A stretch of 32,000 nucleotides of DNA, taken from Tannockella kyphosi (GTDB taxonomy: Bacteria; Bacillota_I; Bacilli_A; Erysipelotrichales; Coprobacillaceae). The notes under the pieces were generated by a model. It saw nothing but the letters and a program-made list of their open reading frames with translations. It did not search any database and was not told the origin of the DNA. Made by a program: the position numbers and the translations under genes. The stretch is taken from NCBI RefSeq assembly GCF_021054785.1, contig NZ_CP088239.1, positions 2,160,001 to 2,192,000 of the forward strand, in the 5' to 3' direction. Shown piece by piece: positions 1,596 through 16,414 of this stretch (position 1 is its first letter; every line of letters begins with the position of its first letter).

Positions 1596-2570
1596 ATGAA
1601 AAAATTATTCAAAATTGCATTAACTGTTGCAATGGCATTCTCAATTGTAGGATGTAGTTCATCAGACTCAGAAGAAGAAGCAAAAACAGTTGGTATTTGT
1701 GTATACCAATTTGATGACAACTTCATGACAACTTATCGTACAGAATTAGAAGAAAAATTAACTGCTTTAGGGTATGAAGTAACTGTAGTAGACGGAAGTA
1801 ATGACCAATCTACTCAATCAGAACAAATTGATACTTTTATTGCTCAAGGTGTTGATGCTTTAATCATCAATCCTGTTATGACTTCTGCAGCATCAGAAAT
1901 CGTTGCTAAAGTTCAAGAAGCTGACATTCCAACTGTTTTAATTAACCGTGAACCAGAAGCTGATACTTATGCAGATTATGATAAAACCGCTTATGTAGGT
2001 TGTGATGCATCTCAATCTGGTACTTTCGAAGGAGAAATCATCTTAAATACTGCTACTAGCGGAGATATCAATGGAGATGGTGTTATTTCTTATATTATGT
2101 TAATTGGAGATCCAGAAAACTCTGACTCTACTTTAAGAACTGAATATTCAGTAAAAGCTTTAACTGATGCTGGATGGGAAGTAGAATGTTTATATGAATG
2201 GCAATGTGACTGGGATCAAACAAAAGGTCAAGAAGCTACTGCGAATGCTTTAACTCAATATGGAGATGAAATTGAAGTAGTATTCTCTAATAATGACTCT
2301 ATGGCTTTAGGAGCTATTGAAGCTATCCAAGCTGCTGGACGTACAGTTGGTGAAGATATCTATATCGTAGGTGTTGATGCATTAGATGATGCATTAGATA
2401 AAATGAATGATGGATTAATGACTGGTACAGTATTAAATGATGCTGATACTCAATCAGATATGTGTATTGAAGTATTAGAATTATTATTAGCTGGTGAAAG
2501 TGTTGAAAAACTTTACTATTGTGACTACACTATGGTTACAACTGATAACATCGCTGACTATATTGACTAA
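1596..2570 (+). CDS. mglB: Galactose/glucose ABC transporter substrate-binding lipoprotein (MglB-like)
   Basis: ORF 1572-2570. The preferred start is the ATG at 1596, 8 nt after GGAGGA. Lipoprotein signal MKKLFKIALTVAMAFSIVGC. Motifs VYQFDDNFM, SNDQSTQSEQID, VFSNNDSMALGA and GVDAL...GTVLNDA align by eye with E. coli MglB. Confidence 0.85.
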   Translation: MKKLFKIALTVAMAFSIVGCSSSDSEEEAKTVGICVYQFDDNFMTTYRTELEEKLTALGYEVTVVDGSNDQSTQSEQIDTFIAQGVDALIINPVMTSAASEIVAKVQEADIPTVLINREPEADTYADYDKTAYVGCDASQSGTFEGEIILNTATSGDINGDGVISYIMLIGDPENSDSTLRTEYSVKALTDAGWEVECLYEWQCDWDQTKGQEATANALTQYGDEIEVVFSNNDSMALGAIEAIQAAGRTVGEDIYIVGVDALDDALDKMNDGLMTGTVLNDADTQSDMCIEVLELLLAGESVEKLYYCDYTMVTTDNIADYID

Positions 2571-2592
2571 TCAAAACAAATAAATAATATGT

Positions 2593-2619
2593 GAAGGGTG
2601 GGCTGTATACCCACCCTTC
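2593..2619 (+). terminator. Intercistronic GC-rich stem-loop after mglB (partial terminator or mRNA stabiliser)
   Basis: GAAGGGTGGG (2593-2602), loop CTGTATA, CCCACCCTTC (2610-2619): a perfect 10-bp stem with no clear T-tract. This is typical of binding-protein/ATPase junctions in ABC operons. Confidence 0.5.
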
Positions 2620-2738
2620 TACATGTTAAAAATAGGTGTTTATATAACATCAAGTGTATAAAATAAAGGTTTATTTACTTGATGTTGTAGTAAATGCTAT
2701 AATATAACAATAGTAAAAGTATAAAGGGAGGATTGCTT

Positions 2739-4247
2739 ATGTCTGAATATCGTTTAGAACTAAAAGGCGTTGTTAAAACATTCCCTGGTGTTAGAGCTTT
2801 AGATGGGGTAAATCTGAATCTGAGACCAGGAACTGTGCACTCATTAATGGGTGAAAACGGTGCAGGGAAAAGTACATTAATGAAATGTATGTTCGGTATT
2901 TACAAAATGAATGAAGGTGAAATGTATTTTGAAGGGGAAAAGGTAGTTATTAATGACCCATTAGATGCATTAAACCGAGGGATTGTAATGGTGCATCAAG
3001 AGTTACAACCAATACCTGCAAGAAGTATTGCAGAAAATATTTTCACAGGTCGTTATCCGACAAAAAAAGCAGGGCCATTGAAAGTGATTGATCATGAAAA
3101 AATGAATGAATTAGCTGCAAAGGCACTAAAAGAAGTAGGATTAGATTATGATGAAAAAGCGTTGCTTGGAACATTGAGTGTATCTCAAATGCAGTTAGTA
3201 GAAATTGCAAAAGCAGTAAGTGTTGATTGTAAGATATTAATCTTAGATGAACCAACATCATCATTAACTTCTAGAGAGGTTGATAAATTATTTGATATTA
3301 TTAACTTACTTCGTGATAGAGGTGTATCAATTGTTTACATTTCTCATAAAATGGATGAAATTTTAAAAATTTCAGATGAAGTTACGATCATGCGTGATGG
3401 TAAATATATTGGAACATATGATGCAAAAGGATTAGAAATTGACTTTATTATTACAAAAATGGTTGGTCGTGAATTAACGGACCTATATCCAAAAAGAGAA
3501 AATGTACCTGGAGAAGTTGTATTTGAAGTAAAAGACTTTACTTCTATTAATCCAAAAAGCTTTAGAGATGTTTGCTTTGATGTAAAAAAAGGTGAAATCT
3601 TAGGAGTTGGTGGATTAGTTGGAGCTCAACGTACAGAATTAATGGAAGGTTTATTTGGGTTACGTTGCCATTCTAAAGGAAATATTAGATATAATGGAGA
3701 ACAAATCAAAATAAATAGACCTAGAGATGCAATCCAATCAGGAATTGCGATGTTAACAGAAGACAGACGTGCTACTGGTATTATGGGTGTGTTATCTATT
3801 TCTGATAATGTTGCGATTGCATCATTAGATAAATACTTAAATGCAGGTATTGTATTAGATGATAAGAAAATCGAACAATTAGTAGATGAGAATGTTGCAA
3901 AATTATCAATTAAAACACCATCTAATAAAACGCTAATTCAAACATTATCTGGTGGGAATCAACAAAAAGTATTAATTTCTAGATGGTTAGCAAATGATCC
4001 AGATATCTTTATCTTAGATGAACCAACTAGAGGTATTGATGTTGGTGCTAAATATGAAATTTACTGTATTATTGCAGAACTTGCAAAACAAGGAAAAAGC
4101 GTTATCTTAATCTCATCTGAAATGAGTGAGTTAATTGGTATGTCGGATCGTATCATGGTTATGTGTGACGGTAGAGTTACAGGTGTAATTGATGGAAAAG
4201 ATGCAAACCAAGAAAATATTATGGAATTGGCAACAAGTTTTGCTTAA
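2739..4247 (+). CDS. mglA: Galactose/methyl-galactoside ABC transporter ATP-binding protein with two ABC domains
   Basis: ORF 2733-4247. The ATG at 2739 lies 7 nt after AAGGGAGG. Two Walker A/signature sets are present (GENGAGKST ... LSVSQMQ ... ILDEPTS; a second half with LSGGNQQK ... ILDEPTRGIDV). Near-collinear by eye with E. coli MglA. Confidence 0.9.
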   Translation: MSEYRLELKGVVKTFPGVRALDGVNLNLRPGTVHSLMGENGAGKSTLMKCMFGIYKMNEGEMYFEGEKVVINDPLDALNRGIVMVHQELQPIPARSIAENIFTGRYPTKKAGPLKVIDHEKMNELAAKALKEVGLDYDEKALLGTLSVSQMQLVEIAKAVSVDCKILILDEPTSSLTSREVDKLFDIINLLRDRGVSIVYISHKMDEILKISDEVTIMRDGKYIGTYDAKGLEIDFIITKMVGRELTDLYPKRENVPGEVVFEVKDFTSINPKSFRDVCFDVKKGEILGVGGLVGAQRTELMEGLFGLRCHSKGNIRYNGEQIKINRPRDAIQSGIAMLTEDRRATGIMGVLSISDNVAIASLDKYLNAGIVLDDKKIEQLVDENVAKLSIKTPSNKTLIQTLSGGNQQKVLISRWLANDPDIFILDEPTRGIDVGAKYEIYCIIAELAKQGKSVILISSEMSELIGMSDRIMVMCDGRVTGVIDGKDANQENIMELATSFA

Positions 4248-4261
4248 GGGAGGATATAAAA

Positions 4262-5263
4262 ATGGAAATGACAAAAAAGAAAATTGATACAAATTATATT
4301 AAAGATTTTTTTGAAAAAAATTCAATTTTAATTTTAATTATTATCATGGCTCTATACGTAGGGTTTACACAAAAGAACTTCTTTTCAATCAGTAATGCAA
4401 AGAACTTAGCTTCTAATACATCAGTTCGTTTCATTATTGCTTGTGGGGTTTCTGGATGTTTAATTACAAGAGGTACTGACTTATCAGCTGGGCGTATGGT
4501 TGGTTTCTCTGCATGTATCTGTGCAACATTATTACAAAAAACAGACTATGCATCTAAATTTTTCCCAGGTTTAGGAGATATTCCTGTAATCGGTGGTTTA
4601 TTATGTGCAATCATTGTCTGTGCATTCTTTGGTGCAATAAGTGGTTTGATTATCGCATTCTTGAAAGTACCACCATTTATTACAACATTAGGTATGCAAA
4701 CATTTATTTATGGTATTTGTAGTGTATATACTGGATCTCAACCATTAGGTGGATTTAAATCAACATTTACTGGAGCAGCAACAGGTAGTTTGTTTGGTGT
4801 ACCGTACTTGGTAATTTATGCATTAGTTATTGGGGCACTAATGTGGTTCTTATATAATAAAACTCGTCATGGTAAATATATGTACGCTATTGGTGGTAAC
4901 GAACATGCAGCAGAAGTTGCAGGTATCAACGTAGCAAAAGTTCAAGTTAAAATTTATGCTTTAGCAGCTTGTTTATATGCTATTGCTGGGTTCTTAGTAG
5001 CAGCTAAATCTGGTGGTGCTTCAGTAGCAACTGGGTTAGGTTACGAATTGGAAGCTATCGCAGCATGTACTATCGGTGGTGTATCTACTAACGGTGGTGT
5101 TGGTAAAGTATCTGGTATCTTAATTGGGGTATTAGTATTTGAAACATTAAAAATCTGTTTACAATTCTTAGGAGTTGACCCTGCTTATACTTATGTAGCT
5201 CAAGGTTTAGTTATCGTAGTCGCTGTAGCATTAGACTTACGTAAATATATAGCTAAGAAATAG
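4262..5263 (+). CDS. mglC: Galactoside ABC transporter permease (MglC / BPD_transp_2 type)
   Basis: 333-aa polytopic membrane protein directly after mglA with an RBS GGGAGG. Contains the TDLSAGR and YAIGGNEHAAEVAGINV motifs typical of the MglC/RbsC family. Confidence 0.85.
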   Translation: MEMTKKKIDTNYIKDFFEKNSILILIIIMALYVGFTQKNFFSISNAKNLASNTSVRFIIACGVSGCLITRGTDLSAGRMVGFSACICATLLQKTDYASKFFPGLGDIPVIGGLLCAIIVCAFFGAISGLIIAFLKVPPFITTLGMQTFIYGICSVYTGSQPLGGFKSTFTGAATGSLFGVPYLVIYALVIGALMWFLYNKTRHGKYMYAIGGNEHAAEVAGINVAKVQVKIYALAACLYAIAGFLVAAKSGGASVATGLGYELEAIAACTIGGVSTNGGVGKVSGILIGVLVFETLKICLQFLGVDPAYTYVAQGLVIVVAVALDLRKYIAKK

Positions 5264-5268
5264 AAAGC

Positions 5269-5481
5269 ATGGAAGACAACAAAGAAGTACAAACAAAAAT
5301 GACTGATTTAGAAGCTGTTGAAATATTAAAAGAACAACGTATAAATCAAAAAGAACTAATGTACGATAAGATTCCTGAAAAGAATAGACCTATCATTATA
5401 AAGGTACTAAATGCAATTATATTATTTGGAATATTAATATTTGCAGGAATTATTATTGGAGCAATGGCAGGATTTTTATAA
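5269..5481 (+). CDS. Small C-terminally membrane-anchored protein of unknown function
   Basis: 70-aa ORF starting 5 nt after the mglC stop and sharing the operon terminator. It has a charged N-terminal half and one C-terminal TM helix (IIIKVLNAIILFGILIFAGIIIGAMAGFL). The RBS is weak. Confidence 0.4.
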   Translation: MEDNKEVQTKMTDLEAVEILKEQRINQKELMYDKIPEKNRPIIIKVLNAIILFGILIFAGIIIGAMAGFL

Positions 5482-5487
5482 GCAAAG

Positions 5488-5521
5488 AAAAGCATTTCAC
5501 TAAAATAGTGAAATGCTTTTT
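5488..5521 (+). terminator. Rho-independent terminator of the mgl operon
   Basis: AAAAGCATTTCAC (5488-5500), loop TAAAATA, GTGAAATGCTTTT (5508-5520), followed by T. Confidence 0.75.
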
Positions 5522-5835
5522 AAATACGCTATTGAGCAAAACAGATTGTTTGTGGATCTTCGGCTATCGATAGCCGATTTCCAAAATTACAAAGAATGGT
5601 ATTGTTAAAACAAACTTCGTTGGCTATCATACGAATACAGGGAATCAGCATGATATTATGTTATTATCAGAGTCTGATATAGATTGTAGTATCTACAATC
5701 TAACCAGTATAGACGTATGACTAGTTTGTTTATAAAAGATTCTCTGCGAAATCTGATTATTGATTCTACTATTATATATAAATAAGTTTAATAAAAAGTA
5801 CGACAATATCAAATATATATTATTATCATAAATAA

Positions 5836-5875
5836 TTTGTGAATATTTCACAAATATTTTGACATAATATATAAT
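5836..5875 (+). promoter_or_regulatory. Predicted promoter with a palindromic operator upstream of the orphan ATPase
   Basis: Palindrome TTTGTGAA-TAT-TTCACAAA (5836-5854). -35 TTCACA (5847-5852) lies inside the right arm, followed by a 17-nt spacer and -10 TATAAT (5870-5875). Confidence 0.4.
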
Positions 5876-5896
5876 ATAGAAAAGGGAGTGATGAAA

Positions 5897-7090
5897 ATGT
5901 TAGTACAATTTATTGTTAGAAATTATCTATCATTTAAAGAGGAAGCTATTTTGGATATGTGTGCGATAAGTTCTTATAAAGAACATGAGTATAACTTGAT
6001 AGATGTTGGAATGAAGGAAAATTTCTTAAAAGTTGCTACTATTTATGGTGCGAATGCAAGTGGAAAGTCAAATTTACTTTTTGCAATGAATGCTTTTCAT
6101 CAAATCATTAAAGAATCTTTAAACAATTCAGATAATGATGAGATTATTATAAAGAAATTATATAATCCTTTTAAGTTTGCAAATGAAAAGGATAATACAG
6201 AATTTCAAGTAATTCAAATTTTAGATGATTTTGAATTTAATTATGGATTCGAATATAATGATGAGGAAATTGTAAGCGAATGGTTGTATATTAAAAATAT
6301 AGCTACTAATCGAACAAAAATGATATTTGAAAGAGAGCGCAGTAAAATAACGTTTGGGGCCAGTGTAAAAAAAGAATGTGATATTTATAAAGAACAGCTT
6401 CCTAAAGAAACGTTAGTTTTATCATGGTTTAATAAATTAAGATTAAAAACAAAAGTGTTTGATGATGTTTATGAAGCAATATTAAATACAACTGTTATCA
6501 CATCTGATGCATATGAATCACCAAGTTTTTTGAATAATTTTTTAAAACCAATTATAGATAAAGAAAAAGAAAAACTTTTATCTTTTTTAGTAGCAATTGA
6601 TAGTGGTATTAAGGATATCTTTTATATGGAAAAAGATGGTGAACTCGAATATTATACTGGGCATATAGGAAGTAATGGAGAAAAATACACATTGAATCTC
6701 TTTCATGAATCACAAGGTACTTTAAAAAGTATTTCAATTTTTATCCATTCATGTCTTGCGATTAAGACAGGACTAGCAATAGTAGTTGATGAGATGAATG
6801 CAAAGCTACATCCATTATTACTCAAGTTTATTGTTGATCTTTTTAATAATCAACAAAACAAGCAAGCACAATTAATATACACAACACATGATACAACGCT
6901 ATTAGATAAACGTTTTTTTAGGAGGGATCAAATCTGGTTTGTAGAGAAAGATGAATTTGGATACTCTAAACTGATTGCATTATCGAATTTTAAAGTTAGA
7001 AATGATGCATCTTTTGAAAAAGATTATTTAAGTGGTGTTTATGGAGGGATTCCGTTTATCAAAGACTTTGATTTGAAAGTTGCTGAATAA
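5897..7090 (+). CDS. ABC-type (AAA_21-like) ATPase; orphan paralogue of the ATPase at 14316-15662
   Basis: ORF 5888-7090. The start ATG at 5897 is preferred: it lies 8 nt after AGGGAG, and its N-terminus MLVQFIVRNYLSF parallels MLIKLSVSNFLSF in the paralogue. Walker A YGANASGKSN, signature-like ESQGTLKS, Walker B IVVDEMNAKLHP, H-loop TTHDT. The C-terminus RRDQIWFVEKD...DYLSGVYGGIPFIKDF matches the paralogue. Confidence 0.75.
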   Translation: MLVQFIVRNYLSFKEEAILDMCAISSYKEHEYNLIDVGMKENFLKVATIYGANASGKSNLLFAMNAFHQIIKESLNNSDNDEIIIKKLYNPFKFANEKDNTEFQVIQILDDFEFNYGFEYNDEEIVSEWLYIKNIATNRTKMIFERERSKITFGASVKKECDIYKEQLPKETLVLSWFNKLRLKTKVFDDVYEAILNTTVITSDAYESPSFLNNFLKPIIDKEKEKLLSFLVAIDSGIKDIFYMEKDGELEYYTGHIGSNGEKYTLNLFHESQGTLKSISIFIHSCLAIKTGLAIVVDEMNAKLHPLLLKFIVDLFNNQQNKQAQLIYTTHDTTLLDKRFFRRDQIWFVEKDEFGYSKLIALSNFKVRNDASFEKDYLSGVYGGIPFIKDFDLKVAE

Positions 7091-7195
7091 ATGTGAAGTG
7101 ACTGTTAAATTCAAACCTGGAAGAAATGTATCTTCGAAAAAAGAAATGGCACTAGGTATCTGATAGTTATACCCTGCATAGGCAAATACCTTTAA
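7091..7195 (+). pseudogene. Possible decayed N-terminus of an RloB-like partner gene
   Basis: An ATG sits immediately after the ATPase stop, where the partner starts in the intact pair, but it is followed directly by TGA. The same frame reads M*SDC*IQTWKKCIFEKRNGTRYLIVIPCIGKYL*. Compare MAPLKTYSNWFVRS...KSYYIICEGQNTEKWYF in the intact RloB-like gene. The stretch is very short and degenerate. Confidence 0.3.
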
Positions 7196-7408
7196 TTAAT
7201 GTATTAATAGTTCTTTAATCATTTCATAATATGTGTCAGATAGAGAAGTATTATTATAGTGAGGTAACTATTTAAATCCATTATTGAGAAAATCATAATG
7301 ACAGAAGTAGCAGTTATAGTTTATTTTTATCTTAAAATCCTTCTAAATGCACTGTAATATTATACTATCTTCTTATGCGTTTTTATGTTGGAACTTATGT
7401 ATAATTTA

Positions 7409-7437
7409 TTGAAAATAATAAAGAAATTCATTATAAT
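7409..7437 (+). promoter_or_regulatory. Predicted sigma-A promoter for darTG
   Basis: TTGAAA (7409-7414), 17-nt spacer, TATAAT (7432-7437), about 50 nt upstream of the darT RBS AGGAGG. Confidence 0.45.
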
Positions 7438-7485
7438 ATGTATATAATTAATGATAAGACAGTTTAATAAAATAGGAGGATAAAG

Positions 7486-8106
7486 ATGGATCCAGTATCA
7501 TATGAGTATAAAATGATAGAATTTTTATATAATATTAATGATTTGAGGAATCTTGAAAGTATTTTTATGTATGGTTTACTATCTAAAAATTCCTTAATAA
7601 ATTTAGGTATTGCAACACCTATAGATTTATCTGATCATGAGGTTCAAAAAATAAGAGAAACTAAAAAAGTTCCAAATCATGCATATCTTCATGATTATGC
7701 TAACTTGTATATAGATGCTCGAAACCCAATGATGTATCGCATAAGTAGAAATAGGAATATTGATGATGTATGTGTTATATGTGTTGATAAGAAGGTATTA
7801 GACATAGAGGGGACTATAGTATCTGATAGGAATGCAGCAGCTGAAATCGCTCTTTTTGACGCTCCCAAGGAAGCTCTTAAGCATCTTGATTTCCCTTTGA
7901 TTCTAGCAAAATATTGGAAAGATGACGATTATCTTATTGAAATAGAAAAAAAGTCAAAAAAATGTGCAGAAGTCCTAGTATATAACAGTGTTCCAATTCA
8001 ATATCTTGTTAAGATAAAAGTCGCGACCAAACAAGCAAAATCTTTAGTTGAAGAATTCTCGTTAGGTGTTCCAATAGAAATAGATAAAAACATTTTTTTC
8101 CAATAA
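7486..8106 (+). CDS. darT: DarT-like ssDNA ADP-ribosyltransferase toxin (DUF4433 family)
   Basis: 206 aa. Segments LHDYANLYIDARNPMMY, IVSDRNAA, YWKDDD...KKCAEVLVY align by eye with LHDYVPFYFCPRSPMLY, FTDRHG, YWADP...KQAEFLVY of Thermus DarT as I recall it. It lies directly upstream of a macrodomain gene. Confidence 0.8.
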   Translation: MDPVSYEYKMIEFLYNINDLRNLESIFMYGLLSKNSLINLGIATPIDLSDHEVQKIRETKKVPNHAYLHDYANLYIDARNPMMYRISRNRNIDDVCVICVDKKVLDIEGTIVSDRNAAAEIALFDAPKEALKHLDFPLILAKYWKDDDYLIEIEKKSKKCAEVLVYNSVPIQYLVKIKVATKQAKSLVEEFSLGVPIEIDKNIFFQ

Positions 8107-8126
8107 AATAAAGGGGGACTAGAAGA

Positions 8127-9227
8127 ATGATTAAAATTAAAATAGGTGATATTTTTAACTCTGATAAAGAAGTTCTAGTTAATACTGTCAATTGTGTAGG
8201 TGTTATGGGGAAAGGCATTGCTCAAGTATATAAGAAACAATTCCCTAAAATGTTTGATGAGTATAAAGAACAATGCGATAAAAAGCAAATTATCATAGGA
8301 GAAAATTATCCTTATTATGAAAATGGGAAAGTAAGGATTATCAATTTTCCCACAAAACAACATTGGCGTTCTTCCTCAAAGTTGGAATATATTGTTTCTG
8401 GCTTAGATTGGTTTGTCGAAAATTATGGAAAATTGGAAATCAGCTCTATTGCATTCCCTCCTTTAGGGTGTGGGAATGGAGGATTAGACTGGTTAACAGT
8501 GGGACCAATCATGTACCAAAAATTGATAGATTTACCAATTGAAATAGAAATTTATGCGCCATTTGGTACAAGTAGTGATCAACTATCTGAACAGTTTTTG
8601 ACTAAACTGCCAGAGAATCCTCTAAAAGAAGGAATTATTCATGAAAAGATGAATGAAAACTGGTTTTTAGTTTTATATTTAGTGTCATACCTATCAAAAT
8701 CAAAGTATTCTATAAAGGTAGGAAGAACAATCTTTCAAAAAATATGTTATGTATTATCAAGGTCTGGTACAGACTTAGGACTTGAGTTTATAAAAGGAAC
8801 ATATGGACCATATTCACCCGACATAAAGAAAATGCTTACGATATTATCGAACAATAATTTAATTTGTGAAATAGAACAAGGCAACATGATATTATTATCC
8901 GTGAACAAGAATTTTACAATTGATCCCGATATGTTTTCGCAAAAAGACAAAGAAAATGTTAACAGTGTATTTCAATTGTTTCGTAGGTTGAAAGATACTC
9001 AGCAATCTGAATTGGTTACAACGATTTTATATTCTTTTGATCAATTACAACTTTATGATGAGAATGTAACGGAAAATAAGCTATTTGAGTATATTGCAGA
9101 ATGGAAAAATAGATATGATAATGATGATTATGAAAAAAGAATTAGAGAATTATCGAGAGATTTGACATCGATGGGATTAATGGATGTTAATTATTCAAAG
9201 GATTATAAGGAGTACGATTTTATATAA
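8127..9227 (+). CDS. darG: DarG-like antitoxin: N-terminal macrodomain (DNA ADP-ribosyl glycohydrolase) plus a C-terminal toxin-binding domain
   Basis: 366 aa. VLVNTVNCVGVMGKGIA, INFPTKQHWRSSS and AFPPLGCGNGGL match the DarG macrodomain signature. The C-terminal half (IFQKICYVLSRSG...GTYGPYSPD) looks DUF4065/Panacea-like. There is a 20-nt gap after darT. Confidence 0.85.
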   Translation: MIKIKIGDIFNSDKEVLVNTVNCVGVMGKGIAQVYKKQFPKMFDEYKEQCDKKQIIIGENYPYYENGKVRIINFPTKQHWRSSSKLEYIVSGLDWFVENYGKLEISSIAFPPLGCGNGGLDWLTVGPIMYQKLIDLPIEIEIYAPFGTSSDQLSEQFLTKLPENPLKEGIIHEKMNENWFLVLYLVSYLSKSKYSIKVGRTIFQKICYVLSRSGTDLGLEFIKGTYGPYSPDIKKMLTILSNNNLICEIEQGNMILLSVNKNFTIDPDMFSQKDKENVNSVFQLFRRLKDTQQSELVTTILYSFDQLQLYDENVTENKLFEYIAEWKNRYDNDDYEKRIRELSRDLTSMGLMDVNYSKDYKEYDFI

Positions 9228-9541: not shown

Positions 9542-10669
9542 ATGGACTATATATTGAAAAGATTTGATGAAAATTTAATATATTTTTCTATGGAAACGAC
9601 AGATGATGGAATTGCAGTTGATATTAAAACTATAAATCATAAATTAGTTCCTATGTTGCCGTTGGATATGAGTAGTGATAATAAGTCATTAAAAAGATGG
9701 TTGGAAAAAAGGACAATACCAAGGAATAGAGCATATGTTACAAACTTTTTATCTAAGATGGATCTGAATGAAAAAGATACAAAAGGTATCATTGATATAT
9801 GTTTAGGATTATCTTTGAATGATTGTTATTGGGTAGTAAAAGAAGGTTGTGAAGATAGTTTTGAAAAAAAGAACTTATATATCAATTCTTTCAATACAAC
9901 CATTGCATCGATTGCATTTACAGGATATGGAAATAATACAAGAACATCCTTTCAATCATCTCCAGAATTTACTACCAATGGTATGCTTGCTAAGTCTTGG
10001 CGTAGACTAAACGGAAAAATAGTGTTATTTAAATCAGGTACAGAAGGTTTTGCAAATAGTGGTTTAGAACCATATTCAGAGTTTTATGCTAGTGAAGTTG
10101 CAAGAGCAATGGGACTGAATCATATAGATTATAATTTATCTAGATGGAAAAAGAGAATGTGTTCGACATGTGAGTTATTTACAGATTTAAATGTTTCTTT
10201 TATTTCCATAGGAAGATTGGTAAAAAGCGGAGGTATGAAAGCTGTAGAAGATTACTATTTAGAGCTAGGTGATGAGTTTTATCAAGAATTAATAGATATG
10301 TTAGTGTTTGATGCAATCATATTAAATGAGGATCGTCATTTAGGTAATTTTGGATTATTAATAGATAATAGAACAAATAAAATTATTGCTCCGGCACCTA
10401 TCTTTGATAATGGGTTATCATTATTGTGTTATGCCATGGATAGTGATTTTGAAAACATAGATGAGTATGTAAAAACAAGAAGACCAGCGTGTTATCAAGA
10501 CTTTATAGAACATGTGAAACCTTTCATAACACATAGGCAAAGAATGAAATTAAGGAAATTATTAGATTTTCATTTTGATACGAAAACAAGGTATAAATTG
10601 AATAATAAAAGGTTGAAGAAATTAGAAATAATTATGAAACAAAGAGCAATCTTATTATTAGATGATTAA
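9542..10669 (+). CDS. HipA-like serine/threonine kinase with no adjacent HTH/HipB partner
   Basis: 375 aa. Catalytic-loop motif NEDRHLGNFG (D-x-H-x-x-N), a downstream IFDNG Mg-binding-type Asp, and a P-loop-like TTNGMLAKSW. RBS AGAGAGG. Confidence 0.7.
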   Translation: MDYILKRFDENLIYFSMETTDDGIAVDIKTINHKLVPMLPLDMSSDNKSLKRWLEKRTIPRNRAYVTNFLSKMDLNEKDTKGIIDICLGLSLNDCYWVVKEGCEDSFEKKNLYINSFNTTIASIAFTGYGNNTRTSFQSSPEFTTNGMLAKSWRRLNGKIVLFKSGTEGFANSGLEPYSEFYASEVARAMGLNHIDYNLSRWKKRMCSTCELFTDLNVSFISIGRLVKSGGMKAVEDYYLELGDEFYQELIDMLVFDAIILNEDRHLGNFGLLIDNRTNKIIAPAPIFDNGLSLLCYAMDSDFENIDEYVKTRRPACYQDFIEHVKPFITHRQRMKLRKLLDFHFDTKTRYKLNNKRLKKLEIIMKQRAILLLDD

Positions 10670-11263: not shown

Positions 11264-11968
11264 TTATATGTATGGAACTGATTCTTTAAATTGTTGATAA
11301 TAACGAAAAGCTTCTGCTCTTTTACGTTGACTAGCACGTAAGATAGTCCCATCATCTAAATGATAATCAATTCCATTACTTGATACTATTTTATCTACAT
11401 TTATTAATAGACTTTGAGAAATACTAATAAAACCATGAATACATAATAATTCATCATACTGTCTATAGAAACGATACTCTCCTACATAACTAGTATCTTT
11501 TGTATGAACATATACTTTACCGTAGTTAGATTCTAAATAATAGACGGAATCAGTATCAATATATCGTATTCTTCTTCTCTCATTCACTCTAATATATCTA
11601 GGTTTTATTCTAGTAGCATCCATATGATATACTAGCGTATCGTAGATACGCTGGCTATCATATGGTTTGGTTAGGATATCGAAGTTATTTAATGGAATGT
11701 AGTCATTACGTGATGTGAGAAGCACGATAGCACAGTTAGGTAATAGTTCTTGGATTGTTTTAAAAGTAACTAGATCAGTGCTAGATTCTTCTAGGTAAGC
11801 GATTCTAAAGTCTACACCATCATACATATATTCAATAAATTCTTTGTTATCATCAAATTGATATACAAATACATCTTCTTTCTTTGTTGGATAGAAATAA
11901 TGTTTACATATTTCATCAGATAGAGTTTTTTGATCGATAAGATAACGATCCACAATAGCAACTTTCAT
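11264..11968 (-). CDS. LytTR-family DNA-binding regulator with an atypical (pseudo-)receiver domain
   Basis: 234 aa. The C-terminal LytTR-type domain reads IRVNERRRIRYIDTDSVYYLESNYGKVYVHT...FISISQSLLINVDKI. The N-terminal CheY-like fold retains T (LLTS) and K (TKP), but Glu sits where the phospho-Asp is expected (IAYLEESS). No kinase gene is nearby. Confidence 0.75.
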   Translation of the reverse strand: MKVAIVDRYLIDQKTLSDEICKHYFYPTKKEDVFVYQFDDNKEFIEYMYDGVDFRIAYLEESSTDLVTFKTIQELLPNCAIVLLTSRNDYIPLNNFDILTKPYDSQRIYDTLVYHMDATRIKPRYIRVNERRRIRYIDTDSVYYLESNYGKVYVHTKDTSYVGEYRFYRQYDELLCIHGFISISQSLLINVDKIVSSNGIDYHLDDGTILRASQRKRAEAFRYYQQFKESVPYI

Positions 11969-12039
11969 ATAGCAAGTCTCCCTTATAATACAGAATGTTC
12001 ACTATTATACTAAACTAGAAAAAGAAAGCAAGAAATTTG

Positions 12040-12396
12040 TCATAAAAACGAAAAGAAAACCAGCGTATCAATGATACGCTGGCTATCGTAAGGCTTTAGT
12101 AGTACTTCGAAGTTATTGAACGGGATGTAGTCCTCATTGGCTGTAATTAGTATAATAGTACAATAAGGTAATAACTCCTTCATTGCCTCAAATGTATTTG
12201 AGTCAATGCTTGATACTTCTAGATAAACTATTTGGTAATCATCTCCATGATATAGAGATTCAATGAATTTTTTATTATCATTATATTGACTAATAAATAC
12301 ATTGTTTTTCTTTATAGGACAAAGACAATGTTCAAATATTTTATTAACTAGAATTTCTTGATCACTGAAATGATGATCTAAAATAGCTACTTGCAT
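12040..12396 (-). pseudogene. Truncated paralogue of the LytTR regulator (pseudo-receiver domain only)
   Basis: 118 aa, about 55-60% identical by eye to residues 1-113 of the neighbour. Homology stops after DSQRIIDTLV and the ORF ends in junk (FFSFL*). The LytTR domain is missing. The upstream regions of the two genes are also homologous (11969-12047 vs 12397-12477). Confidence 0.6.
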
Positions 12397-12488: not shown

Positions 12489-14018
12489 ACTGATTAACTT
12501 ATGATAATGTCTTAGTAGTTATCTTTTGAAAATGTCTCAAAAAACTATATACTATCACTGAGGTGATGATAAATGAAAAAGGTGGATCTAAGAATGAATG
12601 AACAACAAAAATATGAAGTAATTAAAAACCTAGTGGATAACAACGGAAATAAAAATAGCGCTGCTGTTACACTAGGCTTATCAAGGCGTCAAATTGATCG
12701 TCTTATTGTAAATTATAAAGAGAAAGGTAAATCTAGTTTTGTGCATGGCAACCGTTCAAAGAAACCTAGTACATCGATAGATGTATCAATCTCTACTAGG
12801 ATTATACAACTTTATAAAGAAAAATACTATGATTGTAACTTCAATCATTTTAAAGATTTATTAAATGATTGGGAAAATATCCAAGTATCTTATAACTATT
12901 TATATAAACTTCTTATGAAGGAGAATATTCATTCTCCTAGAATAAGGAAACTGACAAGAAAAGCTATGAAGAAAAAAGAACTGTTGCTTTTAAAACAAAA
13001 CCAAGAAAAAACAGAAGAAGATATAGATATTATGGTTAATCATCTAATAGATATTGAAGATAGTCATCCTAGACAAGAAAAACCAAAATACTTTGGAGAA
13101 ATCATTGAGATGGATGGCTCTATCCATCCTTGGTTTGGATTAAATAAAGCTTGTTTGCATCTAGCTATTGATGTTTGTACCGGTACCATCGTTGGTGGAT
13201 ATTTTCAAGAACAAGAGACATTACGTGGTTATTATCATGTTTATAAGCAAATATTAACGGATTATGGCATTCCTTATCAGTTTAAAACGGATAATCGTAC
13301 TGTATTTCACTATGAATCTATCAACAAGTCGAAACGTACTTCTGATAAAGATGTCCTAACTCAATTTGGTTATGCCTGTAAACAGTTTGGTACTGATATT
13401 GTTACTACCAGTGTTGCACAAGCTAAGGGTACCATAGAAAGAGCCAATGGAACATTTCAAGGAAGGCTGGTACAAGAACTTAGAATGAAGGGGATTACTA
13501 CAATGAAAGAAGCAAATAAGTATCTAACAAAGTATTTCATTCCTGACTTCAATAAAAGGTTTGCACTAAATTATAAAAAGTTCCCTAGTGTCATGGAAGA
13601 AAAACCAACACAAGAAAAGATCAATTATACTCTAGCAATATTAACACCTAGAAAAATAGACAGAGGAAGTGCTATTAAATATTTTAATAATACTTACCAA
13701 GTGTATGATAAAGACTCTAAGTTACAATGCTTTATGCCTAAAACGGAATGTTTAGTTATCAAAGCTTTTGATGGAACCTTACTTGTAACAGTTGATGAAG
13801 CAGTGTATCAATTAAAGAAATTAGAAAGTCATAAAAAAGTATCCGAAAATATCGATTTTGTAGAAGAAGAAAAACCAAAGAATGTTTACATACCTCCAAT
13901 GACTCATCCTTGGAAGAAGGCGTCCTTTGATAGACAAGTGAAAAAAGCACATACACAACGTGTATATGCTTAACGCAAATGTTTTCATTAAAACGAGACA
14001 TTTTCAAAAGTTATTGAC
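12489..14018 (+). mobile_element. Complete IS1202-group (ISNCY-type) insertion sequence, about 1530 bp
   Basis: One transposase ORF. Imperfect terminal inverted repeats of about 23 bp: 12490-12513 (CTGATTAACTTATGATAATGTCTT) against the reverse complement of 13995-14018 (GTCAATAACTTTTGAAAATGTCTC), 18 of 24 matching. These abut perfect 28-bp direct repeats. As I recall it, IS1202 has about 23-bp imperfect IRs, a 27-bp duplication and a roughly 54-kDa transposase. Confidence 0.75.
12573..13973 (+). CDS. IS1202/ISNCY-type DDE transposase (HTH + rve-like integrase core)
   Basis: 466 aa. N-terminal HTH (AAVTLGLSRRQIDRLI). DDE candidates are EMDGS, KTDNRTVF and TIERANGTFQ. RBS GAGGTG. Confidence 0.8.
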   Translation: MKKVDLRMNEQQKYEVIKNLVDNNGNKNSAAVTLGLSRRQIDRLIVNYKEKGKSSFVHGNRSKKPSTSIDVSISTRIIQLYKEKYYDCNFNHFKDLLNDWENIQVSYNYLYKLLMKENIHSPRIRKLTRKAMKKKELLLLKQNQEKTEEDIDIMVNHLIDIEDSHPRQEKPKYFGEIIEMDGSIHPWFGLNKACLHLAIDVCTGTIVGGYFQEQETLRGYYHVYKQILTDYGIPYQFKTDNRTVFHYESINKSKRTSDKDVLTQFGYACKQFGTDIVTTSVAQAKGTIERANGTFQGRLVQELRMKGITTMKEANKYLTKYFIPDFNKRFALNYKKFPSVMEEKPTQEKINYTLAILTPRKIDRGSAIKYFNNTYQVYDKDSKLQCFMPKTECLVIKAFDGTLLVTVDEAVYQLKKLESHKKVSENIDFVEEEKPKNVYIPPMTHPWKKASFDRQVKKAHTQRVYA

Positions 14019-14046
14019 AGAAAATTGTCATAAAATGTGAACCAAT
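14019..14046. repeat. Right copy of the 28-bp target-site duplication of the IS
   Basis: AGAAAATTGTCATAAAATGTGAACCAAT, identical to 12461-12488. The flanking sequences differ. Confidence 0.8.
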
Positions 14047-14213
14047 TATAATAATCTCTTTATAACATATAACTTATTCTCTTTTTACGCTAAATAAACT
14101 TGGTCACAATGTCCTATTGTTCATTTCAAAAGAACTTTGTGTAATAGGAGTGCTTTATAAGAGATAATTTATCTTTCAGTTTTATGAATAGTTATTTTAT
14201 CAAATTATAGGAT

Positions 14214-14287
14214 ATAATAGCATATTTAGAGAAGTTTTCTCTAAATATGCTATTATTATTGACTGAATAACATTACTATAGTAATAT
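14214..14287 (+). promoter_or_regulatory. 20-bp-stem hairpin followed by a predicted sigma-A promoter of the ATPase-RloB cassette
   Basis: Perfect inverted repeat 14214-14233 / 14237-14256 (ATAATAGCATATTTAGAGAA GTT TTCTCTAAATATGCTATTAT). Then TTGACT (14259-14264), a 17-nt spacer, and TAATAT (14282-14287). Confidence 0.45.
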
Positions 14288-14315
14288 TTATGTAATAAGA
14301 AGAGGAGGGTTTAAG

Positions 14316-15662
14316 ATGTTAATTAAATTATCGGTTAGTAATTTTTTATCATTTAATGATGAAATAGACTTAAGTATGATAACTTCGAGTAAAATCCAGA
14401 CTTCACAAGAACATAAAATGGAAATTGGGGGAGCTTCCATACTAAAACATGCAGTAGTGTATGGAGCAAATGCTTCTGGGAAATCGAACTTAATAGAAGT
14501 TCTTTCATTTATGAAAAGTAGTATATGTGATAATATGCCACGAAATTCTTCAAGTATGTTTTGTAGAACTCAAAAAGAGAATGAAAATAAACCAAGTGTT
14601 TTTGAAACAACTTTCGCTATTGGAAATAAAGTATATGCATATGGTTTTTCTTCCATTCTAAGTCAAAGAATTATTAGTGAGGAATGGTTATACCAATTAA
14701 ATAAAAATGGTAGTTCGAAAAATGTATTTCATAGAGAAGAGGGGAAGAAACCAGTAATAGGAATAAAACTTGCCAAGAATGATCAAGTGCGCATGGAAAC
14801 TTATTTAGGTGATTTCAATGAAACATCTAATTTATTGTTTTTAACTTTTATGAATAATGGGAAAAACTATTCACAGGGAACTAAGCTTTCTATCTTTAAG
14901 GATGTTTACAATTGGTTTTATGAAGGAGTGGAAATATTTAAAGCTGATGTACCTATAACGGATTTTAGGTATTACTATGATGAAGCGTCATTATCTTTCA
15001 TAAATAAACTAATTACAACTTTTGATACTGGTATATCTTGTATAAATATAGAAGAAATATCTTATGAAGAAGTAAGCAAAGAAATATCGAAAGATATATT
15101 AGTGAATATAGTAACGGATATCTTAAAGAAAACAAACGAGAGTGGAAATCAAGAAATAAAAGTATCACTAAGATCGAGAAAGAGTTTCTTTAACATTGAA
15201 TGTTCGAAAGATGGAACTATTTTATTTACAACTATTAAGTTAGAACACATAAATTCACAGTATCATTTTGATTTTAAAGAAGAGTCAGATGGAACTAGAA
15301 GATTACTAGATTTATTAGATATGCTTCTAGAAAAGAAGGAGAATAAAATATATATTGTTGATGAATTAGAGCGTAGTTTGCATCCAAAACTTACTTATCA
15401 ATTTTTACAATTGTTCCACCAACAAAACTTTTCTAAGCGAACACAATTAATCTTTACAACACATGAATCGTCTATTATGGATGCAGATCTATTTAGAAGA
15501 GATGAAATATGGTTTGTAGAAAGAGATAAAAATAATTGTAGTAAAATATACTCTTTAGATCGTTTTAAAGAACGATATGATACTTTTTTAAGTAAAGCAT
15601 ATTTATCTGGAAGATATGGTGCTATACCAATATTTAAAGATTTTGAGAATAGGCAGGTCTGA
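14316..15662 (+). CDS. ABC-type (AAA_21-like) ATPase, partner of the RloB-like protein
   Basis: 448 aa. Walker A YGANASGKSN, signature-like ESDGTRRLL, Walker B IYIVDELERSLHP, H-loop TTHES. The C-terminus reads RRDEIWFVERD...AYLSGRYGAIPIFKDF. RBS GAGGAGGG. Confidence 0.8.
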   Translation: MLIKLSVSNFLSFNDEIDLSMITSSKIQTSQEHKMEIGGASILKHAVVYGANASGKSNLIEVLSFMKSSICDNMPRNSSSMFCRTQKENENKPSVFETTFAIGNKVYAYGFSSILSQRIISEEWLYQLNKNGSSKNVFHREEGKKPVIGIKLAKNDQVRMETYLGDFNETSNLLFLTFMNNGKNYSQGTKLSIFKDVYNWFYEGVEIFKADVPITDFRYYYDEASLSFINKLITTFDTGISCINIEEISYEEVSKEISKDILVNIVTDILKKTNESGNQEIKVSLRSRKSFFNIECSKDGTILFTTIKLEHINSQYHFDFKEESDGTRRLLDLLDMLLEKKENKIYIVDELERSLHPKLTYQFLQLFHQQNFSKRTQLIFTTHESSIMDADLFRRDEIWFVERDKNNCSKIYSLDRFKERYDTFLSKAYLSGRYGAIPIFKDFENRQV

Positions 15663-15664
15663 TT

Positions 15665-16369
15665 ATGGCACCCCTTAAAACATATTCTAATTGGTTTGTA
15701 AGAAGTGATGATAACAAAGAACAAATAGAACCTTTCAAAAGTTATTATATTATATGTGAAGGGCAAAATACGGAGAAATGGTATTTTGAGAGCTTAATTG
15801 ATAGGAAGAGAGAATTAGGAATACATGCTTCTATTGATATAAAGTATCTTGAAAAAACAAAAGAAGATAAAGATTTATCGCATCCTATAAAATTAATGGA
15901 GTTGGCTAACAAATTTAAAGAAAATAATAACAGACAATTTGATAAGAATCATGACGAAATGATTATTGTCTTTGATGCTGATATCTATGAAGAGAATAAA
16001 GAAAGATATGATTCTTTAATTAAAGAAGCTTCAAAAGATAATATTCTTGCAATAACAAACCCTGGATTCGAGTTATTCTTACTGTTGCATATTGAAAACT
16101 CATTGGATGAGATTATTGTTCCTCATGAACAGGAGATTGTTAGCAATCAAAAAGTAGGGAATCAACGTTTTATAGCTCATTTATTTAGAAAAACAACCGG
16201 TATGAATGCAAAAAAGAATTCGCGTATAAGTGAATTATCTAAAGACATACAAATAGCAATAAATCAAGAAAAGAATATAAATAATGATATTACTAAAACA
16301 AATGGAAAACTAACAAGTAATGTTGCAAAAGTAATATCGGATATTCTTAATGATCAAGTAGAATTCTAG
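15665..16369 (+). CDS. RloB-like (Toprim-superfamily) protein, putative nuclease effector
   Basis: 234 aa. YYIICEGQNTEKWYF, IVFDADIY and ITNPGFELFLLLH match the RloB family pattern (ilIvCEGekTE.nYF ... vfD.D ... SNPcFElWlLLH). The ATG is 2 nt after the ATPase stop. Confidence 0.8.
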   Translation: MAPLKTYSNWFVRSDDNKEQIEPFKSYYIICEGQNTEKWYFESLIDRKRELGIHASIDIKYLEKTKEDKDLSHPIKLMELANKFKENNNRQFDKNHDEMIIVFDADIYEENKERYDSLIKEASKDNILAITNPGFELFLLLHIENSLDEIIVPHEQEIVSNQKVGNQRFIAHLFRKTTGMNAKKNSRISELSKDIQIAINQEKNINNDITKTNGKLTSNVAKVISDILNDQVEF

Positions 16370-16414
16370 CAAAAGCACTAATCCCTGTTTGGAATTAGTG
16401 CTTTTGCTAGAATT
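16362..16414 (+). terminator. Strong hairpin terminator overlapping the rloB-like stop codon
   Basis: AATTCTAGCAAAAGCACTAAT (16362-16382) pairs with ATTAGTGCTTTTGCTAGAATT (16394-16414): a 21-bp stem with an 11-nt loop. Confidence 0.7.

Follow-up and report, generated by a model that had tools for sequence, protein, structure and literature searches.

Positions 14214 to 16414 of a 32-kb stretch of Tannockella kyphosi DNA (the window, to which all coordinates refer unless another locus is named) hold a + strand cassette of two genes, one for an ATP-binding cassette (ABC)-type ATPase and one for an RloB-family protein, preceded by a palindrome. We consider it likely that this region is an AbiL-family two-gene anti-phage module with toxin-antitoxin-like behavior, situated in a small defense island. 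The gene pair is of an already catalogued kind, AbiL, and standard defense-system annotation would call it; the family is large, and the pair itself adds little. The palindrome, previously unremarked, is by comparison of related loci a family-conserved sequence element, and it is the one new lead of the analysis.

Two closely spaced genes encode an ABC ATPase and an RloB-family protein

The two open reading frames (ORFs) of the cassette are abiLi (14316 to 15662, + strand, 448 aa) and abiLii (15665 to 16369, + strand, 234 aa). The TGA of the ATPase gene ends at 15662 and the ATG of the RloB gene begins at 15665, and the resulting 2-nt gap, which an earlier note on this DNA had pointed out, is read directly in the sequence. 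Upstream of abiLi lie a predicted sigma-A-type promoter (14259 to 14287, + strand; -35 box TTGACT at 14259 to 14264, 17-nt spacer, and -10 box TAATAT at 14282 to 14287) and a ribosome-binding site, GAGGAGGG (14302 to 14309, + strand), which is 6 nt 5' of the ATG. This sigma-A promoter of its own, together with the strong ribosome-binding site and the 2-nt gap, shows the pair to be a single transcription unit. Furthermore, because the 2-nt gap is kept in relatives, translational coupling of the ATPase and RloB genes is suggested. The promoter, also proposed in the earlier note, matches 9 of 12 consensus positions and is unremarkable in a lone scan (16 consensus sites overall vs 19.9 expected, that is, not above chance). 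It is credible because the -35/17/-10 layout is conserved in homologous loci, where TTGACx-17-TATAAT stands at the equivalent place and the spacer is 17 nt in 30 of 36 loci. GGAGG likewise occupies the place of the ribosome-binding site in relatives. Exact copies of both proteins are recorded at NCBI for Tannockella kyphosi under the generic names "AAA family ATPase" and "RloB family protein," and the nearest relatives outside the species, 52 to 58% identical, come from gut Clostridia, mostly Lachnospiraceae.

The ATPase translation contains GANASGKSN, SDGTRRLL, IYIVDELERSLHP (Walker B), and TTHES. The corresponding residues are G50-K56-S57 in Walker A, Q130 as a Q-loop candidate, S324-D-G326 as a signature-like motif, D349-E350 in Walker B, and H383 in the H-loop. 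In an alignment of 35 homologues, G50, A51, N52, A53, G55, and K56 of Walker A were invariant or nearly so, as were Q130, E323-S-D-G-T-R-R, D349, the catalytic Glu E350, the subsequent ERSLHP, and T381-T-H383-E; all of the ABC motifs (G50-K56, Q130, S324/G326, D349-E350, and H383) were invariant or at least 90% conserved. The protein matched Pfam AAA_21 (1.2e-33) and also AAA_15, and the AbiLi profile of PADLOC (PDLC02335, 5.8e-85) ranked at the top of 47 ATPase profiles, with far lower scores for the generic AriA, HEC-01A, PDC-M, MAD3, PtuA, and GajA profiles. Its AlphaFold (AF2) model (predicted local distance difference test score [pLDDT], 81; predicted template modeling score [pTM], 0.78) gave 140 matches at an E value of ≤0.001 in a Foldseek search of the PDB, led by the Thermus OLD nuclease 6p74 (2.4e-10), Rad50, Septu PtuA, SMC heads, retron-associated PtuA, and GajA (6e-8). 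On alignment and predicted structure, the protein is shown to be an ABC ATPase of the OLD/Rad50/PtuA structural class with all catalytic motifs intact. Because these motifs are conserved and the model matches solved ABC heads, the ATPase looks catalytically competent, and the class in which the model places it is one that serves as the sensors of OLD-like defense systems.

An alpha/beta insert occupies approximately residues 142 to 320 of the ATPase. The earlier note had described the middle of the protein as showing no visible similarity to a paralogue encoded in the same window (5888 to 7090) and had suggested a variable sensing insert. BLASTP aligned the two proteins end to end (29% identity, E value of 5e-39), strongly at the ends and poorly in the middle, roughly residues 175 to 320, so that the middle is indeed poorly matched but does lie within a full-length alignment. 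A variable insert thus describes the paralogues and not the orthologue clade. Within that clade, mean identity over residues 141 to 320 was ~0.47 vs ~0.50 for the N-lobe, the insert holds invariant residues (Y220, Y221, and F236-I240), and only two blocks of 20 residues each, 201 to 220 and 261 to 280, were clearly variable.

The 234-aa protein is a putative Toprim-like metal-dependent nuclease, as judged from its motifs and predicted fold. Its translation contains YYIICEGQNTEKWYF, IVFDADIY, and ITNPGFELFLLLH, and the motifs that had been noted earlier are all present in both translations. The protein matched Pfam RloB nearly over its full length (1.9e-27; 97.2 bits vs a cutoff of 31.5), and AbiLii (1.5e-17) was its sole PADLOC match, which is what the RloB assignment in the earlier note had called for. 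Among the Pfam families named there, AAA_21 and AAA_15 were matched by the ATPase and RloB by the second protein, whereas DUF4435 was not matched by the latter. The RloB family is large, with 2180 clusters at 50% identity matching its profile. In a diverse set of 74 members that were 28 to 48% identical to the query, E32, G33, D104, and P133 were invariant and T36, E37, D97, F103, D106, E136, K183, and E202 were at least 90% conserved. The candidate catalytic residues are E32, E37, D97, D104, D106, and E136, with H142, K183, and E202 also conserved, and the motifs were intact across alignments of 36 and of 74 homologues.

A Glu after strand 1 and a DxD after strand 3 form the arrangement that defines Toprim domains. 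The AlphaFold (AF2) model of the RloB protein (pLDDT, 87.5; pTM, 0.83) has a beta-alpha-beta-alpha-beta-alpha-beta core in which E32 directly follows strand 25 to 31 and D104-A-D106 directly follows strand 98 to 104. Within the limits of a predicted structure, the Toprim Glu and DxD are thus shown to be in their canonical positions. The Toprim assignment as such comes mainly from published work (PMC12065111, PMC10440598, and PMC13064643).

Kinship with AbiL and a proposed mode of action

AbiL (AbiLi/AbiLii) was reportedly described by Deng et al. in 1999 from the Lactococcus lactis plasmid pND861, and both PADLOC and DefenseFinder have models of it. Like the present cassette, it has two cotranscribed genes, with the ABC ATPase first and the RloB/Toprim-like protein second, and both PADLOC profiles match here; an AbiLi-type ATPase, an AbiLii/RloB second protein, and an adjacent same-strand operon were all found. 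The two differ in setting, the cassette being chromosomal in an Erysipelotrichaceae gut bacterium and AbiL being on a lactococcal plasmid. The RloB protein gave no plasmid match above ~32% identity, and there was no Lactococcus record among the plasmid matches listed. Published reviews place AbiL among the systems that combine an ABC ATPase with a TOPRIM protein (PMC13064643 and PMC11464382). The earlier note had given this layout for PARIS, OLD/Gabija, and AbiL, in agreement with PMC11464382, PMC13064643, and PMC12409363, and its remark that RloB-type pairs are mechanistically almost uncharacterized agrees with PMC13064643.

PARIS, by analogy, offers the best mechanistic model, since in it, too, the ABC ATPase sensor and the Toprim nuclease effector are separate proteins and the logic is toxin-antitoxin-like. 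In PARIS, AriB is sequestered by a hexamer of AriA and cleaves tRNA once it is released (PMC11464382 and PMC12409363). However, the only AriA profile matched by the ATPase of the cassette is the generic, AAA_21-type one, with a match far weaker than that to AbiLi, and a published superposition of AbiLii on AriB was poor (PMC13064643). Membership in PARIS was rejected because the 234-aa protein has no DUF4435 or AriB match in Pfam or PADLOC. P2 Old and GajA share the structural class of the ATPase (6p74 at 2.4e-10 and GajA at 6e-8) and the same E/DxD Toprim chemistry, and Old has been reported to be an abortive tRNase (bioRxiv 10.64898/2026.07.10.737580). In those proteins, however, ATPase and Toprim are fused in one chain, and with two separate genes and no GajB-like helicase neighbor in the cassette, OLD/Gabija membership was also rejected. 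MADS (MAD3/MAD4) was excluded by a score of 24.6 bits against a cutoff of 420 for the NCBIfam MAD3 equivalog NF047739. The NetFlax-validated TOPRIM_OLD(D44, RloB-like):AAA(D29) pair of Clostridium algidicarnis, also a Firmicute, has the same domain pair, the likeness being one of domains (PMC10440598); no phage phenotype is reported for it.

By analogy with these relatives, the ATPase would be both sensor and neutralizing partner and would keep the nuclease inactive as long as the cell is uninfected. A cue from a phage would alter the state of the ATPase, and the nuclease, freed or activated, would cut a nucleic acid essential for translation or replication and so stop the infected cell (abortive infection). 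The leading guess for the target is tRNA, because PARIS AriB and P2 Old are tRNases. Comparison of related loci suggests that expression would be controlled via a conserved 25-bp palindromic element, which most likely would be bound by protein, possibly by a product of the cassette.

Several published findings are in keeping with this scheme. L. lactis AbiL aborts phage infection after transcription (PMC13064643), Fusobacterium nucleatum AbiLii is toxic in Escherichia coli (PMC3985639), the C. algidicarnis RloB-type toxin is neutralized by its AAA partner in E. coli (PMC10440598), and AriB and P2 Old are tRNases restrained by their ABC ATPase (PMC11464382, PMC12409363, and bioRxiv 10.64898/2026.07.10.737580). 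The anti-phage, abortive-infection reading of the earlier note is supported here, and its two checks, the RloB profile and the distance from restriction-modification (R-M) genes, both came out in its favor.

A number of observations weigh against it. In the work of Dy et al. (PMC3985639), AbiLii of F. nucleatum was not neutralized by AbiLi supplied in trans, and the L. lactis AbiLii showed no toxicity in E. coli; given these negative results, the toxin-antitoxin picture is not uniform. Likeness to the founding lactococcal AbiL is known via PADLOC profiles only, the AbiLii match is partial (profile positions 25 to 98 of 170), and the nearest homologue beyond the species is just ~55 to 58% identical. 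The Toprim side has its own caveats. In a Foldseek search of the PDB, the RloB model had no match at an E value of ≤0.001 and no Toprim protein in the top 50, and profiles from 36 or 74 sequences found no sequence-related PDB chain, only noise. hhalign of the RloB alignment against full-length P2 Old returned an irrelevant match only, and with a three-sequence OLD/GajA profile it was weak, placing LVEGxxE onto RloB ICEGxNTE in register (P = 0.012). One of the 74 RloB members matched Pfam OLD-like_TOPRIM at 4e-4, this being the sole family after RloB with a best E value of <0.001, and in the BFVD the model found only another "RloB-like protein," from a Myoviridae contig (1.7e-6). RloB is too diverged for detection of the OLD Toprim domain by profile hidden Markov models or Foldseek, save in that one member.

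A plain addiction (toxin-antitoxin) module, stabilizing a genomic island or mobile element and without a phage-defense role, is an unlikely alternative, although RloB-type toxins with AAA antitoxins do act as toxin-antitoxin pairs in E. coli (PMC10440598) and the pair is found on integrative and conjugative elements (ICEs), on plasmids, and beside recombinases (resolvases and integrases). The founding member of the family was isolated by its anti-phage phenotype (PMC13064643), and the locus lies among other defense genes; moreover, addiction and defense are not mutually exclusive roles.

The pair stays together in varied surroundings

In all 79 related loci, which are from the genomes of different species and have upstream DNA available, an AbiLi-type ATPase gene stands immediately 5' of the RloB gene on the same strand, and in 47 of them exactly 2 nt separate the genes. 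The surroundings are heterogeneous and often mobile. Compared with Pfam, 122 nearest neighbors fell into 127 families with none dominant; phage integrase (5), RadC (4), and ResIII (2) were the commonest, and no methylase family was in the top 25. In Bilifractor the pair sits between nadA and a phosphoesterase gene, one relative is inside a conjugative element (an ICE with a relaxase), one (L012-L014) is divergent from a type I R-M operon, hsdR-S-M-S, and one (L015-L017) adjoins a giant methyltransferase-helicase. In Clostridium sp. Marseille-P2415 (L009/L038, positions 2285 to 8714 of that locus), the pair is duplicated in tandem next to two resolvase genes. This run of AbiLi-like genes comprises a complete AAA_21+RloB pair, another pair with the ATPase truncated to 183 aa, and a further ATPase-like ORF upstream.

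That the pair is an accessory of an R-M system, like Campylobacter RloA/RloB, is highly improbable and for this clade largely refuted: RloB was named from R-M-linked ORFs (PMC10440598), the Campylobacter genes (again an RloB protein with an ATPase) lie inside type I R-M loci, and relatives stand beside hsdR-S-M-S and the methyltransferase-helicase, but relatives of HsdM or of large methyltransferases(-helicases) occurred within 8 kb in just 3 of 68 loci (by single-sequence phmmer, which is less sensitive than profiles), and there was no R-M gene among the ORFs of at least 100 aa in the 32-kb window.

Given the strict pairing, the heterogeneous neighbors, and the scarcity of R-M genes nearby, the pair is, by comparison of loci, a standalone cassette and not an R-M accessory. 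The view of the earlier note that it is self-contained, and its expectation that homologues would not be embedded in R-M operons, are thus borne out. The clade is also, on database searches, nearly absent from phages: tblastn with the RloB protein gave no match in 50,697 phage genomes, and one relative was found in 2.9 million viral contigs. Together, the strict pairing, the 2-nt coupling, the lack of an R-M link, and the near-absence from phages give a clean comparative picture of one AbiL clade.

On plasmid pTS1 of Treponema saccharophilum (L101, positions 3001 to 4823 of that locus), the partner of an AbiLi-like ATPase (32% identical) is a NUDIX hydrolase and not RloB. To one side of this pair are genes for cytosine methyltransferases, and to the other is a gene for a restriction endonuclease of the Eco47II family. 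The locus exemplifies effector swapping, with the ATPase retained.

A conserved 25-bp element lies upstream of the promoter

The palindrome (14214 to 14256) consists of two 20-nt arms, 14214 to 14233 and 14237 to 14256, which are 100% complementary around a 3-nt loop; an RNA copy would have a folding energy of -24.1 kcal/mol (z = -7.7 vs shuffled sequences). The earlier note had seen a perfect 20-bp-stem hairpin here, and the stem is as described, but the palindrome is more than a mere hairpin. Its core, 14223 to 14247 (TA-TTTAGAGA-AGTTT-TCTCTAAA-TA), is this locus's version of a 25-bp element that is conserved 5' of abiLi genes and has the consensus TATTTRGAGA-A5-TCTCYAAATA.

A strict pattern (5-nt spacer and at most 2 substitutions) found the element 5' of the ATPase gene in 38 of 70 nonidentical loci and had 3 matches in 910 kb of flanking DNA, one of which is 5' of yet another AbiLi-like ATPase gene. 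A position weight matrix (PWM) built from the 38 strict-pattern sites reached at least 16 bits in 69 of the 70 related loci, including 32 outside the training set, against a background of 1 match in 1.69 million positions. The sole strong PWM site in the window is 14223 to 14247 itself (26 to 29 bits), the runner-up scoring 13.6.

The position of the element is fixed as well. In relatives the order is element, -35 box, spacer, TATAAT, GGAGG, and ATG, in a constant layout; the distance from the element to TTGACx is 13 to 15 nt in 31 of 37 loci (about 14 nt 5' of the -35 box), which puts the predicted center of the element near -60 (~60 nt 5' of the transcription start). The bases between the element and the promoter and ribosome-binding boxes are not conserved, and the proteins have diverged to ~50% identity. 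Because the layout has been kept through this divergence, the comparison indicates that the 25-bp element is under selection. The promoter-proximal half of the element is better conserved than the distal half, and its G and C positions are invariant.

Base pairing, in contrast to sequence, is not what has been kept. In the element, 68.0% of cells were paired vs 66.6% in column shuffles, covariation was 0.155 vs 0.142 shuffled (87 of 500 shuffles were as high), and the R/Y position was unpaired in 14 of 38 sequences. Relatives keep only the inner ~10 bp, the outer 8 pairs of the 20-bp stem being paired in 47% of cells. The palindrome is moreover absent from the mRNA, since it is upstream of the promoter. 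A function as an RNA or DNA hairpin was rejected because pairing was no better than in column shuffles, and because covariation of base pairs is lacking, the element is probably a protein-binding (operator-like) site.

Related palindromes precede other AbiLi-like genes. Before the second ATPase gene of the window, TTTGTGA-ATATT-TCACAAA (5836 to 5854) overlaps a TTCACA-17-TATAAT promoter, and on a Clostridium estertheticum plasmid TTTTGTGA-ACTTT-TCACATAA precedes an AbiLi-like gene. AGTGA-AAAAA-TCACT occurs twice each with AbiLi-like genes on Fusobacterium varium and Bacillus mycoides plasmids, and GGAGA-AAAAA-TCGAA precedes the Treponema ATPase that is partnered with a NUDIX hydrolase. No related palindrome was seen on a Salmonella or a Rhizobiaceae plasmid. 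The half-sites of the two AbiLi-type genes of this genome therefore differ, GAGA at 14225 and GTGA at 5836; the C. estertheticum ATPase, whose palindrome is likewise of the GTGA type, is the one that the window's second ATPase resembles most.

In L012, which adjoins the type I R-M operon, a 23-nt perfect palindrome (positions 6536 to 6588 of that locus) with the core ATATAGAG-N7-CTCTATAT abuts the -35 box and is a more divergent, extended version of the element, like the window's own. In Clostridium sp. Marseille-P2415 (L009/L038), a copy of the element stands only ~20 nt before two ATPase starts.

At the other end of the cassette, an inverted repeat with 24-nt arms (16362 to 16385 and 16391 to 16414; 96% complementary, one mismatch) forms a long hairpin (16362 to 16414, + strand; -35.2 kcal/mol if RNA, z = -9.5 vs shuffled). 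The earlier note had called it a terminator with a 21-bp stem. The long 3' hairpin is there, with arms of 24 nt, but because it has no + strand T-run and overlaps the abiLii stop codon, it is hairpin-like and not a canonical intrinsic terminator; it may be a terminator-like or transcript-stabilizing 3' end specific to this locus. The sequence 3' of the RloB stop was not conserved among 72 loci, and a conserved 3' boundary motif was rejected for that reason. Because surroundings and downstream sequence vary between loci, the conserved and presumably mobile unit comprises the upstream element, the promoter, and the two genes.

Candidate binders of the element

We tentatively propose that the element may serve as an operator for a sequence-specific DNA-binding activity that the cassette's own genes provide. 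The likeliest binder would be the AbiLi ATPase, because similar palindromes are also found 5' of AbiLi-like genes with a different partner or without an RloB partner. Consistent with this proposal, the element accompanies the ATPase gene from host to host and from phylum to phylum, the half-site changes with the ATPase lineage, and two versions coexist in one genome.

That the element is instead read by a host factor, either a transcription factor with a small regulon or the RNA polymerase alpha subunit on a UP-like element, is a real possibility, if short of probable. A recognizable DNA-binding domain was found in neither cassette protein; the element, which is rich in A and T and includes an A5 tract, lies 5' of the -35 box, where activators and the C-terminal domain of alpha bind; and its promoter-proximal half is the better conserved one. 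On the other side, the element accompanies the gene pair across several Bacillota families, its variants (GTGA-N5-TCAC and GAGA-A5-TCGA) precede AbiLi-like ATPase genes on Fusobacterium, Bacillus, Clostridium, and Treponema plasmids, the two AbiLi-type genes of one genome have different half-sites, and the background holds only one strong match per 1.69 million positions. A generic UP element is further disfavored because invariant G and C positions would not be expected of it.

Very unlikely is a terminator or insulator hairpin, or a chance or insertion sequence (IS)-derived repeat, in place of a protein-binding site: the palindrome of the window could form a 20-bp stem (-24 kcal/mol) and an IS end lies 200 bp upstream, but no T-run follows it, relatives keep the inner ~10 bp alone, pairing and covariation are near shuffled values, and 69 of 70 loci with unrelated flanks keep the sequence itself at a constant spacing from the -35 box.

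If the cassette does encode the binder, AbiL-type systems would regulate their own expression, the differing half-sites, GAGA and GTGA, would insulate paralogous systems of one cell from each other, and DNA binding by the sensor ATPase might contribute to infection sensing. Binding of the element would give AbiL proteins their first assigned biochemical activity and would provide a simple assay of their state. The conserved promoter-proximal element thus offers a concrete experimental handle on AbiL. In a 2026 review of lactococcal Abi systems, operators, autoregulation, and inverted repeats are raised for AbiE and ToxIN and not for AbiL.

Surroundings of the cassette in the window

The cassette sits in a small defense island, where it closes a ~10-kb stretch (5.8 to 16.4 kb) between a sugar ABC transporter and a capsule/sortase locus. 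The stretch opens with the second AbiLi-type ATPase gene (5888 to 7090 from a GTG, 400 aa, or from an ATG at 5897; PADLOC AbiLi, 4.9e-86), for which no RloB gene or remnant was found anywhere in the window. A DarT-DarG toxin-antitoxin/defense pair (7486 to 9227) begins 395 nt after it, with a DarT of 206 aa (Pfam DarT, 2.5e-40) and a DarG of 366 aa with a macro domain (PADLOC DarG, 9.4e-90). A HipA-like kinase gene follows (9542 to 10669; weak Pfam HipA_C match; PADLOC candidate-system profile PDC-M03A, 2.6e-21), for which no partner was identified, and then genes for a LytTR-domain regulator of 234 aa and an adjacent 118-aa protein without a family match (11264 to 12396, - strand).

The GC content of the window is uniform at ~28%, with no sign of recent import, and Rfam had no match in it. 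Over positions 1 to 1570, the only complete listed ORF of at least 60 aa has 61 aa; another ORF may extend past the left end. Between the regulator genes and the cassette lies an ISNCY-family IS (transposase, 12573 to 13973; NCBIfam, 2.3e-112) with 19-bp terminal inverted repeats at 12520 to 12538 and 13995 to 14013, ending 200 bp upstream of the palindrome of the cassette. Just outside the right end of the IS, at 14025 to 14052, is TTGTCA-16-TATAAT, which with 11 of 12 positions is the region's best match to a promoter; it points toward the cassette, with no ORF between it and the palindrome.

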